Below are positions 15,001-21,000 of a stretch of DNA of 48,766 bases, in pieces (the first letter of the stretch is position 1; every line of letters starts with the position of its first letter). Made by a program: the position numbers. This stretch comes from Myxococcota bacterium. GTDB taxonomy: Bacteria; Myxococcota_A; Polyangia; Polyangiales; Sandaracinaceae. Location: NCBI GenBank assembly GCA_036149055.1, contig JAYZQJ010000077.1:1-48766 (forward strand). Direction: 5' to 3'.

Positions 15001-18000
15001 GACGTCGCACGCCGGGAGCAGCCGGATCTGATCCTGATGGATCTGAGCCTGCCGCGAATGGACGGCTGGACCGCGACCCGGACGCTGCGGGGCGACGCAG
15101 CGACCGGGGCGATCCCGGTGGTGGCGTTGACCGCGCATGCGTCCGCGGAGGACCGCGAGCGTGCGCTGGGGGCGGGGTGTTCCGACTACCTGACGAAGCC
15201 CGTGGAGCGAGGTCAGCTCGTCCGGGCCATCCGGAAGAACCTCAACCGAACGTAGGCAAACTTCGATGGAAAACTCTCTTCGCCTGCTCGTGGTCGATGA
15301 CGACGAGGAGCATCTGGAGCTCGTGCGCCGGCTCCTGTCCGCGTACCAGTTCGAGGTGCGCACGACCTCCTCGCCGATCGGGGTGTCCAACCTCGTCCGC
15401 GAGTTCCTCCCCAACGTCATCCTGATCGACGTCAACCAGCCCGCCCTCAGCGGCGACCGCATCCTCACCCTGGTCCGCCGCAACGCGAAGTCGGCGGCCA
15501 AGCTGGTGCTCTTCTCCTCGGCGGACCCGGAGCGCCTGCGTCAGCTCGCGCGATCGGTGGAGGCCGACGGCTGGATCCCCAAAGGGCTGGCGCCGCGTGA
15601 GCTCGCCGACCAGCTCCGGAGGGTCTGCGCCACCTGAGCTCGACCGGAGGTACCCATGGCTCGAAGCGTCACCGATCCCCTCTCGATCGCGTGCGCCGAC
15701 GCGCTCCTGCGCGTGTGGCCACGCCTCTACGACGAAGACCCGCCCGACCTCGCGCTCGCCTGGATCGAGCGCGCGGTGGCCTCGCCGCCCGAGGGCTGGC
15801 GCTCGCTCGTCTCCGACGACCACACCCCGGTCGAGCTCTCGATCGCCTCCGGCCCGGAGGGGGAGAGCCTGCGCCTGCTCGTCGAGGCGCAGGCCGACGA
15901 GGCGACCACCCCGGCGCAGATGGCCGCCGCGCTCTCGCTCCAGCGCTGGGCCTGCGAGCGGCTCGGCGCGCGCGGGGAGCGGCTCGACGCGATCGCGCCG
16001 TGGCTGCTCCCGGACGGACACGCCGGCCGCTTCGGGCTTTGGCACGCGGCGGTCTTCCGTCCGGGCGGCGGGATCGACCTCAAGGCCTACTTCGATCCGG
16101 CGGCCCGGGGAGCGTCCCGCGCGGCCGAGACGGTGGAGCGCTCCCTCGAGGCGCTCGGACTCCAGCGCGCCTGGCCCGCGGTGGCGGCGCTGGCGGAGCG
16201 AGGGCCGGCCCTCGATCGGCTGGGGTTCTTCTCCCTCGACCTGGTGGAGCCGGAGCGGGCCCGCACCAAGGTCTACGTCTCGAAGCACCGGGCCAGCGTC
16301 GCCGAGCTCCGCGCGGCGGCGAGGCTCGCGCGTCACGGCGACGAGGACGCGCTGGTCGCCCACCTCGAGGCCACCGTCGGCGCCCGCGAGGGCTTCCTGC
16401 CGGCGTCGCTCCCGGTGGTCACCTGCCTCGACTTCGCGGGCGACGATCCCACCCCGCAGCACCTCACCGTGCACGTGCCCGTCCGCGCCTACGCCCCGGA
16501 CGACGCGGCGGCGATGGATCGCGCGCGCGCGGCGCTCCGGGCGGCCGGCCTCGCGCCTCGCCGGACCGAGGAGGGCGTCGCCGCCTTCGCCCGCCGCGAG
16601 CTCGACGCCGGCTCCGGCATGATCCCTTACGTCTCCCATCGCAGCGAGGCCGGCGGCGGGCGGGTGACCGTCTACCTCTCCCTCGAGGCCCGCGAGGTCG
16701 CCGCGCCCCACGCCGGCGCGCGGGCGGTCGAGCGCCGCCCCGCGTCGAGCGCCTCGGTGGAGGCGACGATCGAGGCCCTCGCCGCGGCGCCGATCGCGCA
16801 TCACCCGTTCCTCCAGCGCCTCGCCCGCGAGCCCCTCGCGCTGGAGCGGCTCGCGCTCGTGCTGCTGAACTTCCAGCTGGCGATCACCCGCGACTTCGCG
16901 CGTCGGCTCGCGCAGACGGTGGCGCGGGTGGACGACGAGGCGGTGCGGTCGATCCTCGCCAAGCAGCTCGACGACGAGCTCGGCCACGGCGACCCGGACG
17001 CGGCGCACCGGCTGCTCTTCGATCGCTTCGTCGAGGGCCTGCGCGACCACGTGCCGGATCCGTTGCCGGAGGGCCACCTCGCGCCGGGGCGGCGGCTCGC
17101 GGAGACGCTGGAGCAACTCTACGTGCGCGAGCCGGAGGGCTGGGTCGGCGTCGGCGCGACCCTGGTGATGGAGGTCTTCGGCCAGCAGGTCGACGCGTTC
17201 CTCGGCGAGCAGTTCCGGCGCCAGAGCGCGCTGCCCGCGTCGGTGCTGGAGTGGCTCACACTGCACGAGGAGCTCGAGCACGACCACGTCGACGAGGTCT
17301 TCACGCTCGCCCGCCGGATCCCGGAGGGCGCGCCGCGGGATCGCGCGCGCGAGGGGGTCGAGGCGCTCGCGACCGCGGGCTGGGCGTTCTTCGACGACAT
17401 GTACCGCGCGGTCTGGCCGTCGTGATCGACCTGACCTCGCTCCGCGCCCGCTTCCCGCTGCTCGAGGAGCGGCTCTACTGCGCGACGCCGGGGCTCGGGC
17501 CGGTCCTCCGGGAGACCTACGAGGACCTGGAGGCCTATCGGCGCACCTTCGCTCGGCGCAGCCGCGCCCTCGAGGAGTGGGTCGAGCGCTACGAGGCGCT
17601 GCACGGTCTGGTCGAGCGGCTCCTCGAGGCGCCCCCCGGCTCGGTCTTCCTCACCGACACGGCGACCTCGGCCCAGGCCGCCCTCGCCGCCGCGGTGACG
17701 CCCCGCGGCGCGCGCACGCGGATCGTGACCGGCGCGGCCGACTTCAAGTCGAGCCGCTACCTCTGGAGCGCGCAGGAGAGGCGCGGCTTCGACGTGATCG
17801 CGCTCGACGCGCACGGCGACGCCGCCCCGCTGCTCGAGGCCATCGACGAGCGCGTCGCGATCGTCGCGCTCTCCCTCGTGTCCCCGCGCACCGGCGCCCT
17901 GCTGCCCGCCGAGGCGATCGCGGCCCGGTGCCGGGAGGCGGGTGCCACCCTCGTGCTCGACGCCTACCAGGCGGTGGGCGTGGTCCCGGTCGACGTCGGC

Positions 18001-21000
18001 GCGCTCGGGGCGGACGTCGTCGTCGGCGGCACCCACAAGTGGCTGCACGGCGGCGGCACGGGGCTCGCGTTCGGCTACGTGGCCCCGGCGCTCTCGGCGC
18101 GGCTCGAGCCCGTCTACCCCGGCTGGCTCGGGCACGCCTCGTTGCATGCCTTCGCCGACCGCTTCGAGCCGCGGGCGGGCGCGCGGCGGCTCGCGCAGGG
18201 CACGCCGGCGATGGAGCCCGTCTACACCGCGCGGGCCGGGCTGGAGCTCGCGCTCGAGGTCGGGGTCGCCGCGCTCCGCGCGCGCAGCCTCGCGCTCACC
18301 GCGCGCCTCCACGAGGGGCTGAGCGCGCGCGGCATCGCGGTGCGCACGCCGGCGGCGCCCGAGCGCCGAGGCGGCATGGTCTGCGTCGACCTCGTCGACG
18401 GGGGCGAGGCGGTCGTGGCGGCCCTCGCCGCGGAGGGGATCGACGTGGACACCCGGGCTGGGGCCGGGGTGCGGGTCGGGCCGCACCCGACGCAGACGGA
18501 GGACGACATGGACCGGGTGGTCGACGCCCTCGCGCGGGCGGTGTCTTCGTGACCGATCCCCTCGACGCGTTCGACGCGAGCCTCGCGCCGCTCGCCAGCG
18601 CGTACCTGCCGGGCGCGCTCGTCGCCGCGGCGGTCGAGCTGGGGCTCTTCGAGCGGCTCACCGCGCCCGCCGCGCCCGAGGAGGTCGCCGCGTCGGTCGG
18701 CGCCTCGGTCGAGGGCACCGCGCGCATGCTGCGGGCGCTGGCCGCGCTCGGGGTGGTTCGCCACGCGGGCGAGGGGCGGTTCGACTGCCCGCACCACGAG
18801 GCGCTCCGCGCCGATCGCCCGGAGAGCGTGGGCGCGCTCTTCCTCCACCATCACCGGCACGTGGCCCCGCTCTTCGCCCGGCTCGCCGACAGCGTCCGGA
18901 CCGGCGCGCCCCAGCACGGGGCCTGGCGCTTCGCGTCCGCCCCGCCCGCGCCCACCGCCTACGAGGAGCTGACCCGGCACCCGGAGGAGGTGGCGCTGTT
19001 CCTGCGAGCGATGGATCGCGACGGGCGCGGGGTGGGCGAGCGGATCGCCTCGGCGGTCGATCTCCGCGGCTGCGACCGGCTGCTCGATCTCGGCGGGGGA
19101 GGGGGCGCGGTCGCGCGCGGCCTGCTCCGCGCGGTCCCGGGGCTGGTCGTGGAGAGCGTGGACCTCGGGCCGGCCTGCGCCTACGCGAGGGCCCGGAGCG
19201 AGGCCCAGGGGCTCGCCGGCCGGCATCGCCTCTTCGAGCGCGACCTGAGGCGGCCGCTCGATCTCGAGCCCGCGCCCTGCGTGCTGCTCTCGGCCGTGCT
19301 CGCCGACTTCCCGGCCCCGGAGCGCGCGCTCGTCATGCGCCACGCGGCGGACTGCGTGGCCGAGGGCGGCACCCTGCTGATCAGCGAGCGGCTCCTGCAC
19401 GACGATCGCTCGGGGCCGGTCGGCGCGGCGATGCTCTCGCTCCTGACCTTCGCGGCGTTCGGCGGCGATCAGCTGAGCGCCGACGACGCCTGCGCGCTCC
19501 TCGCGCAGGTGGGTTTCGGGGTGGTCGCCCTCTGCTCCGCGCAGGACGGAGAGCGCGATCTCGTGGTCGCCGAGCGGGTCAGGCCCGCTCGATGACCAGC
19601 GCGGTGGCGACCCCGGCCCCGCCGCAGATCGAGACGACCGCGCGTCGCTCGCCCCGGGCCTCGAGGGCGTCGAGCGCGGTCGCGACCAGCACCCCGCCGG
19701 TCGCGCCGAGGGGGTGCCCCATCGCGATGGCTCCGCCGAGCACGTTGAGGCGCGCGTGGTCCACCTCGAGCGCGCGCGAGAAGTGCTCCGGCACCACCGC
19801 GAACGACTCGTTGACCTCGTAGACGTCGACGTCGCCGGCCTCGAGGCCCGCCCGCGCCAGCGCCTTCCGGGTGGCCTCCACGTTGCCGTGCAGCATCAGC
19901 GTCGGCTCCACCGCGGCGTGCGCCCACGCGCGGACGAGGCCCCGGGGCGCGCGGCCGAGCCTCTCGAGCGCCGCGTCGTCGGCCACGAGGAGCGCCGACG
20001 CGCCGTCGGCCAGCCCCGGCGCGCTGCGCGCGTGATGCACCGGCGCGACCTCCACCCCGGGGTAGCGCGCGGCGATCCGGCGGCGGGCGTCGGCGTCGAG
20101 CAGGTCCCCGAAGGCGCCGGGCCGGGCGCTCACCTCGTCGAGCGTCAGGCCGTCGCGGATGAGCGCGTCGTGCGCGAGCCCCGCCGCCGGGACCAGGCTC
20201 CGCGCGAACGCGCCGCCGTCGCGCGCGGCGGCCGCCCGGGCGTGGGACCGCACGGCGAGGGCGTCGAGGGCCGCGCGCTCGATGCCCGCCTCGGCGGCCA
20301 GCAGGTCGGCCGCGACCGCCATGTGCACGAAGCCGGTCGCCTCGGCCACCTCGGGGTCGAAGCACCAGGGACCCCGGTCGGCGAACATCGGCACCCGGCT
20401 CAGCGACTCCACGCCGCCGGCGACGATCAGGGACTCCATCGGGGACGAGACGCGCGCCGCCGCGGTGGCGATGGCGTCGAGGCCGCTCGCGCAGAAGCGG
20501 CTCACCGTGGCCCCGCCGCCCTCGAGGCCGGCGAGCAGCGCGGCCATCCGGGCGACGTCCGTGCCCTGCTCTCCGGTCGGCATCGCGCAGCCGACGATCA
20601 CGTCGTCCACCGCCCCGTGCCCGGTCCGCTCGCGCAGCGCGCGCAGCAGATCGGCGAGCAGCCGCGTCGGCGGCACCCCGGACAGCTCCCCGCCCTCGCG
20701 GCCGCGCCCCCGGGGCGTGCGCACCGCGTCGACGATCCAGGCGGTCACAGCCCGACGACGAAGCTGACGGTGGTGGTGGCGCTGCCCCCGAGGTTGAGGG
20801 TCTGCGCGCGCCGCGCGCCCTCGACCTGGATCTCGCCCGCCTCGCCCCGCACCTGGCGCGCGCCGTCGAGCAGCATGCGGACGCCGGTCGCGCCGACCGG
20901 GTGGCCGAGGCCGATCAGCCCTCCGCTCGGGTTCATCGGCAGCGCCCCGCCGCGCTCGAAGAGCCCGGCCTCGAGGGGTCGGAACGCCTCGCCCGGCTCG

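Follow-up and report, generated by a model that had tools for sequence, protein, structure and literature searches.

We propose, at somewhat better than an even chance for its four steps taken jointly, that a seven-gene cassette in the window (the whole analysed stretch, 48,766 nucleotides of contig JAYZQJ010000077.1 from a Myxococcota bacterium of the Sandaracinaceae) combines a synthase with a sensor: a diiron domain would open the ring of prenylated tryptophan, and later steps would cleave the product to a prenyl-anthranilate and methylate it. We infer all of this chemistry. The DMATS domain of a fusion protein would place a prenyl group on the indole ring of L-tryptophan; its heme-oxygenase-like diiron (HDO) domain would fill the role of tryptophan 2,3-dioxygenase (TDO), using O2 to open the indole at its C2=C3 bond and so yield prenyl-N-formylkynurenine, as gene replacement suggests; a kynureninase-like enzyme would remove alanine to leave prenyl-(N-formyl)anthranilate; and a methyltransferase would cap the product as a methyl ester or an N-methyl compound. 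A TDO form of the cassette would give the unprenylated analogue.

The first-pass annotation had suggested a compact pathway whose product would be a tryptophan derivative, prenylated and oxidised, and rightly presented substrate and product as inference. That pathway is supported, but the most telling point, the existence of cassettes in which TDO takes the fusion's place, had been missed; with it the product can be sharpened to a probably ring-opened, anthranilate-type compound.

Organisation of the cassette and its enzymes

All seven genes lie on the + strand, from an upstream boundary at 10143 through the methyltransferase. The first encodes a pentahaem cytochrome c lipoprotein (10143..11999) with a signal peptide ending in AGC, four CxxCH motifs and one CxxxCH motif; it is conserved in alignment, is kept with both the fusion form and the TDO form of the cassette, and appears MtrC/OmcA-like from language-model features. 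It is followed by a FIST-domain, NosP-like soluble sensor candidate (12029..13192; Pfam FIST and FIST_C), by a hybrid histidine kinase (13189..15255; coiled coil, HisKA, HATPase and three receivers by Pfam) that has a highly conserved N-terminal part and no sensor domain of its own and whose start overlaps the FIST stop by 4 nt, and by a stand-alone receiver protein (15266..15637; Pfam Response_reg). The fusion ORF (15656-17425; 589 aa, free of internal stops) comprises a DMATS-type indole prenyltransferase domain (15656..16705, residues ~1-350) and the HDO domain (16706..17425), the proposed ring-cleaving oxygenase. Successive 4-nt overlaps join it to a kynureninase-like class V PLP enzyme (17422-18552; Aminotran_5 and KYNU_C) and then to a SAM-dependent methyltransferase (18549-19595; Pfam Methyltransf_2 with dimerisation domain, and PDB search). 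We thus recovered the PLP enzyme and methyltransferase behind the fusion and the kinase and receiver ahead of it, as first annotated, but the unit had been drawn too short, without the cytochrome and FIST genes; the methyltransferase is real, but the "O" in its earlier name is a Pfam label only. The thiolases, RPE65-family oxygenase and amine oxidase that flank the cassette were excluded from the system because they were absent beside the fusion in 28 fusion loci. The cassette shows no gene resembling a formamidase, and a PF04199 cyclase was looked for in five genomes and found in none of them.

The claimed fusion is real, with domain boundaries as described: Pfam places Trp_DMAT (PF11991) at residues 45-300 (56.4 bits, cut-off 25) and Haem_oxygenas_2 at 410-572 (52.9 bits, cut-off 28.9), and in a fresh 10-sequence alignment all 13 named DMATS and iron-ligand positions were invariant. 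In the DMATS domain these are E60, R73, K143, Y145, R203, K205 and Y207, which we take to be the indole-binding Glu and the diphosphate-binding Arg/Lys/Tyr set. The prenyltransferase barrel fold is clear (Z 40.1, rmsd 2.4, 339 residues aligned to 6zry), and the score against NCBIfam TIGR03429 lies below the cut-off (99.1 vs 163.85 bits). IptA, PriB, 6-DMATS-Mo and CymD share ~30% identity, the same barrel (Z 38-42) and the catalytic residues with this domain; their solved chains are single-domain proteins of 346-405 residues, whereas the window's enzyme adds a C-terminal HDO. H273 aligns with PriB H312, presumably the position of the C6 base; the site is His in some family members and Tyr in others, and no paper in the literature searched described H312 of PriB as this base. 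Judged by its sequence, the domain belongs to the family; it would prenylate L-tryptophan, most likely at C6.

The HDO domain carries the 3His/3-carboxylate motif (E441, H451, E506, H537, E541, H544; 3His/3Glu), a motif defined in the relevant passages of a review (PMC13108848). Its predicted model (mean pLDDT 88) has the seven-helix heme oxygenase fold, nearest to the N-oxygenase HrmI (Z 22.4, rmsd 2.7, 220 aligned) and followed by CADD (20.1) and BesC (18.5); a profile match to BesC was obtained at E 3e-7, and phmmer with the domain alone returned 0 PDB matches. Sequence and model point to a predicted diiron, O2-activating enzyme. The fold and ligand set are shared with the HDO superfamily as sections of PMC13108848 and PMC11869266 describe it (HrmI, CADD, BesC, FlcD, AetD, SktA); the window's HDO differs in being fused to a prenyltransferase and in lying outside the AetD/SktA sequence group. 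The superfamily has >10,000 members, about a dozen of them characterised according to passages of PMC13108848, in whose main text "prenyl", "fusion" and "kynuren" each occur 0 times. Neither a precedent for indole ring-opening by an HDO nor any account of this system appeared in the literature searched (mostly open-access, main texts without supplements); supplementary SSN tables of HDO papers could list this fusion.

For the PLP enzyme the best PDB match was kynureninase 1qz9 (E 5e-33), and the KYNU_C domain scored 54.3 vs 27 bits. F108, D180, K206, W235 and R351, which we take to be PLP/substrate residues, aligned to 1qz9 and were invariant in 42/42 fusion-linked and 14/14 cassette-TDO-linked enzymes. 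The score was below the TIGR01814 kynureninase equivalog cut-off (77.7 vs 246.4), as were those of the TDO-linked relatives (96-132), and below the curated cysteine desulfurase (SufS/IscS) cut-off (73 vs 475 bits). At site 357, Cys is present in 34 of 42 relatives and Thr in the window's enzyme. A quick tree without outgroup, whose reach stops short of placement within kynureninases, showed the fusion-linked lyases as sister to the TDO-linked ones, on their own branch with changed residues. We consider the enzyme kynureninase-like, with putative cleavage of kynurenine to anthranilate and alanine. The methyltransferases of the fusion and TDO forms are only 25-35% identical, and some loci have a RebM/MitM-like methyltransferase in exchange. 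SibL was among the PDB matches of the window's methyltransferase; kynurenine-derived building-block pathways of the AcmI/SibL type have a Methyltransf_2 enzyme. Passages of the one relevant review yielded no mention of myxobacterial methyl anthranilate.

Exchange between TDO and the fusion

Opening of the tryptophan indole ring is the work of the haem enzymes TDO and IDO. In the TDO-kynureninase route (kynA/kynU) and the kynurenine-derived building-block pathways, oxygenase, kynureninase and methyltransferase stand in a row, and the sister TDO cassette has exactly this order; in the window the haem TDO is replaced by the prenyltransferase-diiron fusion, and a formamidase is not seen. We propose the HDO as a haem-free ring-opening oxygenase because the fusion sits where related cassettes have TDO. 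Among 100 cytochrome-anchored loci (80 metagenome + 20 genome), 23 had TDO (21+2), 24 the DMATS-HDO fusion (15+9), 0 both and 53 neither (44+9). The TDO-carrying loci mostly also had the kynureninase-like enzyme and the methyltransferase, as in G124 (FIST-HK-REC-TDO-PLP-OMT-CYT) and G166 (CYT-FIST-HK-TDO-PLP-OMT). Canonical TDO is the closest match of the cassette TDO (E 3e-31), which retains the distal His, Arg and proximal His, to which we assign the named TDO roles. On the cytochrome tree the two forms interleave, with 3 changes, at least 2 of them forced; the enzyme block has therefore been swapped more than once.

The presence of the lyase also follows that of the iron ligands. Among the non-redundant fusions, 49 keep all six ligands, and 45 of these have a kynureninase-like gene directly behind; among ligand-dead fusions the figure was 0/10, and 4/10 had a tryptophanase instead. 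The only two intact fusions that truly lack a lyase neighbour come from genomes that encode a sister-clade enzyme at another site. In G265 and G006 (98% and 97% complete), which have the fusion and its lyase as the sole kynureninase-like gene at E<=1e-30, no TDO or IDO was found.

The reported frequency and spread over three families agree with our counts: 12/301 genomes of the order had an intact full-length fusion with PLP neighbour, plus one in pieces, and where 12 homologues had been claimed our search returned 13 matches counting the window's own cluster. "Rare" holds at the level of the order, but in absolute terms the fusion is less so, with 28/65 loci in one genome-collection scan and 49 intact non-redundant copies overall. 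Cultured carriers among named records belong to Polyangium.

Alternative readings of the chemistry

Slot replacement, the mutual exclusivity of TDO and fusion, the ligand-lyase coupling and the two genomes without TDO or IDO speak for ring-opening. Against the model as a whole stand the lack of a characterised HDO that opens an indole ring in the literature examined, the N-oxygenase as nearest structure, widespread housekeeping TDO, stand-alone HDOs without lyase, a lyase below its curated cut-off, divergent methyltransferases, no formamidase or cyclase seen, a patchy FIST gene, sensor modules without enzymes, and the relatedness of the genomes, which are therefore not independent samples.

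The HDO might instead oxygenate an indole ring that stays closed, forming a 3-hydroxy-oxindole amino acid from which the lyase would drop alanine by retro-aldol cleavage, leaving a prenyl-isatin or oxindole for methylation. This route, which we rate as unlikely, requires the same two partners and so fits the ligand-lyase coupling, and it suits the separate branch and changed residues of the fusion-linked lyases; kynureninase has retro-aldol activity on dihydrokynurenine, and a Streptomyces prenyl-isatin pathway uses a prenyltransferase, a tryptophanase and a P450. It leaves unexplained, however, why TDO occupies the same slot ahead of a like lyase and methyltransferase. Kynurenine could also come from outside the cassette, since a TDO lies elsewhere in 36 of the 38 genomes examined, among them the window's own (C23:13138-14172, Pfam search), which also has an IDO-like match. 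The housekeeping TDO would then open the ring, and the HDO would perform other tailoring, for example by N-oxygenating the aryl amine or oxidising the prenyl chain, to which we give a low probability; the N-oxygenase as nearest fold agrees with it, as do stand-alone HDOs of the same clade that lack a kynureninase neighbour (L025 and L028, both with intact ligands, and L306). The intact HDO domain of L105 has no such neighbour either. Yet TDO-form cassettes bring their own TDO although G124 and G166 each have a second one, no locus has both TDO and fusion, and the two genomes noted above have fusion and lyase with neither TDO nor IDO.

AetD and SktA, the sole tryptophan-acting HDOs in the passages of the review (PMC13108848), both work on the side chain. 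A reaction of this type, stripping the prenyl-tryptophan side chain to a nitrile, aldehyde or skatole with the PLP enzyme in a side role, seems very improbable here. There is indeed a distinct fusion of a DMATS with an AetD-like domain (L114, matching AetD at E 3e-8 and serving as positive control), but the window's domain had no match to AetD by phmmer or by profile at E<=10, the AetD-type fusions L088, L090 and L114 have no kynureninase-like neighbour, and loss of the alpha-amine would deprive the lyase of its substrate. Separately, the indiacen pathway was considered since Sandaracinus makes prenyl-indoles, and was rejected: indiacen B keeps an intact indole, since it derives from 4-iodoindole and bears a chloro-diene side chain (passages of PMC4660955), and the ligand-dead class with tryptophanase and FAD oxidase is a better fit.

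The sensor module and its possible role

We propose that the FIST protein and the sensor-less kinase form a signalling unit. Their predicted complex scored 0.56 vs 0.00 for the best control (contact agreement >=98%, partner pLDDT >=90); in calibration 116/157 solved and 2/215 mismatched pairs reached the mark, with only 18/157 solved pairs and both mismatches at <=0.60, so that the model weakly suggests a complex. Granted the four steps, our preferred reading that FIST and kinase respond to the cassette product stands at roughly even odds. Whatever the chemistry, the pair may instead be a NosP/NahK-type NO or haem sensor controlling the pathway, a possibility just short of even. NosP is, in passages of PMC11784011, a haemoprotein that senses NO and acts on a co-cistronic hybrid kinase, and the window's protein likewise has both FIST N and C domains and such a kinase. 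The NosP model NF041558 was its best NCBIfam match, Cys335 is invariant in 17/17 aligned FIST proteins, and some sensor modules are complete yet have neither enzyme block (e.g. L183, L201, L205, L224, L261). On the other hand, the score falls well short of the NosP cut-off (136.4 vs 450), and the module, which here accompanies a small-molecule pathway and a lipoprotein with several haems, remains tied to tryptophan-converting blocks through rearrangements and block swaps. The FIST gene was present in only 13/28 fusion-anchored loci.

A similar arrangement is described in passages of PMC3617294 for actinomycete indole-prenyltransferase clusters, where a DMATS acting on tryptophan and a second prenyl-tryptophan enzyme, tryptophanase (type A, IptA) or FMO (type B, SCO7467/8), adjoin a conservon, with a signalling role proposed; our own search also recovered actinobacterial prenyltransferase-conservon loci. 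In the window a fused HDO, a kynureninase-like lyase and a methyltransferase replace tryptophanase or FMO, the FIST protein, hybrid kinase, receiver and pentahaem cytochrome replace the conservon, and the product is probably ring-opened. A Pfam scan of 13 genes of the window, spanning 6442 to 23347, showed no conservon gene, tryptophanase or FMO.

The farthest-reaching version of our model, in which the HDO acts as a tryptophan 2,3-dioxygenase without haem and the cassette serves myxobacterial cell-cell signalling by methylated anthranilates, with lineages swapping plain (TDO form) and prenylated (fusion form) signals read by a FIST/kinase receptor, we regard as doubtful. Diiron ring-opening of a prenylated substrate would be a new reaction for the HDO superfamily. 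The link between a FIST protein and a small-molecule pathway provides a candidate ligand besides NO and haem, and the cassette points to a family of signals or metabolites that has gone unrecognised in myxobacteria.

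The seven-gene cassette

The first-pass annotation had grouped the fusion, the PLP enzyme, the methyltransferase, the kinase and the regulator, and these members stand; its extent was too short, as the cytochrome and FIST genes also belong to the unit. The cassette (10143–19595, + strand) thus consists of genes for a five-haem-motif lipoprotein (the cytochrome), FIST (a candidate NosP-like sensor), a hybrid kinase without a sensor domain, a receiver, the fusion, a kynureninase-like PLP enzyme (the lyase, 17422–18552) and a Methyltransf_2 family methyltransferase, with successive spacers of 29, −4, 10, 18, −4 and −4 nt. 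Among solved structures, the PLP enzyme matches kynureninase best (E = 5e-33, against 1e-13 for the next family). Metatranscriptome contigs from four seawater runs of one study cover the cassette, one of them spanning 9665–15909; they do not demonstrate a single transcript and may include DNA.

The fusion is an uninterrupted frame of 589 residues (15656–17425), as first annotated, with Pfam matches to Trp_DMAT (45–300) and Haem_oxygenas_2 (410–572), each above the cut-off, and all the key residues proposed earlier are invariant in our own 10-sequence alignment. In an AlphaFold2 model built on this alignment (mean pLDDT 88.2, pTM 0.87), residues ~2–352 resemble solved bacterial tryptophan prenyltransferases (Z 38–42), and residues 363–589 resemble heme-oxygenase-like diiron oxidases (HDOs), namely HrmI (Z 22.4), CADD (20.1), BesC (18.5) and AetD (15.2). 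The six iron ligands E441, H451, E506, H537, E541 and H544 agree with the 3His/3-carboxylate set given for HDOs in PMC13108848.

One scan of a genome collection yielded 65 loci. The fusion is present in 28, including two frameshifted copies and one truncated where its contig stops. Directly behind it comes the PLP gene in 27 of the 28. Methyltransf_2 genes lie nearby in 14 of these loci and RebM/MitM-like methyltransferase genes in 6; 13 have FIST and 15 the cytochrome, with several gene orders and orientations. The RebM/MitM-like enzyme accompanies both myxobacterial and actinobacterial DMATS loci (P0010; L008, L012, L016–L018, L022), being inserted between DMATS and HDO in P0010, and at ≥45% identity none was seen with loci of the tryptophan 2,3-dioxygenase (TDO) form; it may target the prenyl group or prenyl-tryptophan.

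The predicted FIST–kinase complex scored 0.56 against 0.00 for the best control (contact agreement ≥98%, partner pLDDT ≥90). The mark was reached by 116/157 solved and 2/215 mismatched pairs, and scores up to 0.60 comprise 18/157 solved pairs and both mismatches, so that the model weakly suggests a complex. The cytochrome is similar to MtrC/OmcA proteins by its features. Its presence in the fusion form, in the TDO form and alone makes a dedicated role as the HDO's reductant unlikely. The Asp/Glu-rich repeat tail at the end of the cytochrome (~11930–11996) varies in length between strains, two runs having an extra 12 nt at 11927, and is missing from most relatives.

Several neighbours should be mentioned. 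A sigma-54 activator gene (8579–9982), possibly a regulator, lies upstream of the cytochrome, a linkage confined to close relatives (L002, L026, L096). Two thiolase genes and an RPE65-family oxygenase gene (19579–23347, − strand) are convergent with the cassette and show no linkage to the fusion in the fusion loci of the scan. In two runs, RNA contigs connect position 6475 directly with 7786, omitting a flavin amine oxidase gene (6442–7833, − strand); they probably represent a strain without it.

Exchange of the fusion and tryptophan 2,3-dioxygenase

Searching 401 genomes of the phylum with a profile built from fusion-linked PLP enzymes gave 4 matches of at least 500 bits and 23 at 213–367 bits. 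Six of the latter have a TDO gene within 1.5 kb, and in two of these (G124 and G166) the same cytochrome/FIST/kinase cassette carries TDO in the place of the fusion. Canonical TDOs are the closest structures to the cassette TDO, which, like its lyase partner, scores under the curated equivalog cut-off. The form with TDO, kynureninase-like enzyme, methyltransferase and FIST/kinase/cytochrome is seen at L143, L146, L182, L195, L196, L203, L213, L218, L234, L247 and L263.

For a comparison anchored on the cytochrome, we took the 80 best among 105 metagenome loci and 20 of 28 genome matches; of the other eight, five were already covered and three were partial. Of the loci taken, 21 + 2 have TDO, 15 + 9 the fusion, none both and 44 + 9 neither; the TDO count includes L193, a fragment on the opposite strand at a contig end, and the fusion count L179, near-identical to the window. 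Loci with neither are mostly short contigs, and at least five hold the full sensor module without the enzyme block. With near-duplicates removed at 97%, all loci together comprise 21 TDO, 31 fusion and 29 neither. A FastTree tree of 52 cytochromes shows three label switches, of which well-supported branches account for at least two; the window's group of five falls within a supported set of eight, with two TDO-form loci among them.

Iron ligands and the lyase partner

We compared 65 non-redundant long DMATS reading frames. All six ligands are present in 49, and the lyase lies directly behind 45 of these; two of the other four stop at a contig edge with the lyase start visible, and for the last two a sister-clade enzyme is encoded at another place in the genome. 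From the 16 non-intact frames we left out L027 (frameshifted, with lyase) and L054 (a Streptomyces frame without HDO); in 10 of the remaining 14 the HDO-like domain is ligand-dead, in 3 the domain is of AetD type, and 1 frame runs into tryptophanase; none of the 14 has the lyase next door. A tryptophanase above the NF009709 cut-off accompanies 4 of the 10 ligand-dead fusions, and a cytokinin-dehydrogenase-like FAD oxidase 9 of them. With loss of the iron site, therefore, the lyase requiring an oxidised substrate is replaced by one for intact indole. These counts are not independent trials because the genomes are related. In a quick tree without outgroup, a branch with SH-aLRT 95 sets the fusion-linked lyases (43 rows) apart; they retain the core residues of the TDO-linked lyases, with some clade-specific changes.

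The ligand-dead class (L106–L113, L021:5675–7549), with its FAD oxidase and often tryptophanase, is a candidate route to indiacen-type dienyl-indoles by DMATS, side-chain removal and a prenyl desaturase, in analogy with EasE. Separate arrangements include an independent fusion of DMATS with an AetD-type HDO (L114:8429–10207, E = 3e-8 to AetD; also L088 and L090), an AetD-like HDO fused to an FAD oxidase (L113:6022–7941), a DMATS frame that runs on into a tryptophanase-like region and is a probable fusion (L091:1498–4023), and a fusion in which catalytic residues are lost from the DMATS half while the HDO is intact, with a separate intact DMATS behind (L105:8001–11346).

Proposed reaction and its alternatives

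Against this background of observed families, folds, ligand sets, gene order and gene replacement, the pathway that we somewhat favour is as follows. The DMATS domain would prenylate tryptophan, the diiron site would open the ring, alanine would be released by the lyase and methylation would follow. Position C6 is suggested because H273 aligns with PriB H312, which serves as the C6 base; many relatives have Tyr here instead. The pathway would end in a methylated 4-prenyl-anthranilate or in the N-formyl derivative, the latter considered because a search for PF04199 formamidase found none in 5/5 genomes, two of them TDO-form. Neither a TDO nor an IDO turned up in G265 or G006, two drafts 97–98% complete that carry both fusion and lyase.

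Several observations count against the proposed pathway. A TDO is encoded elsewhere in 36 of 38 tested genomes, including the window's, which also has an IDO-like match. The closest fold to the HDO domain is an N-oxygenase (HrmI), and the characterised tryptophan HDOs described in PMC11869266 work on the side chain. Stand-alone HDOs of the same clade lack a lyase neighbour, the methyltransferases of the two forms share only 25–35% identity, and FIST was not seen in 15 of the 28 fusion loci within the DNA covered per locus.

As to the loci themselves, the IDO-family match (G000:C288:12754–13344, L177) lies within a reading frame of more than 1600 codons, as in the congener G036:C109. The stand-alone HDOs come from two cyanobacteria and two myxobacteria (L025:9941–10693, L032:112–849, L028:9947–10687, L306:6403–7140); that of L028 follows a hybrid kinase, and that of L306 an aromatic amino acid hydroxylase-like gene and a methyltransferase.

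The nearest published layout is that of actinomycete clusters in which a prenyltransferase and a tryptophanase or FMO adjoin a conservon, with a signalling role suggested in PMC3617294. In the literature searched, mostly outside subscription journals and without supplements (related work: PMC5010890, PMC9306752, PMC4660955, PMC13185094, PMC11784011, PMC8772769), we found no description of a prenyltransferase–HDO fusion, the cassette or its TDO form, the myxobacterial FIST/cytochrome/kinase module, a kynureninase–prenyltransferase pathway or the predicted ring cleavage by an HDO. All parts of the cassette belong to known families. Taken together, the fusion cassette is a real feature, and the reaction predicted for it is specific and cheap to test.
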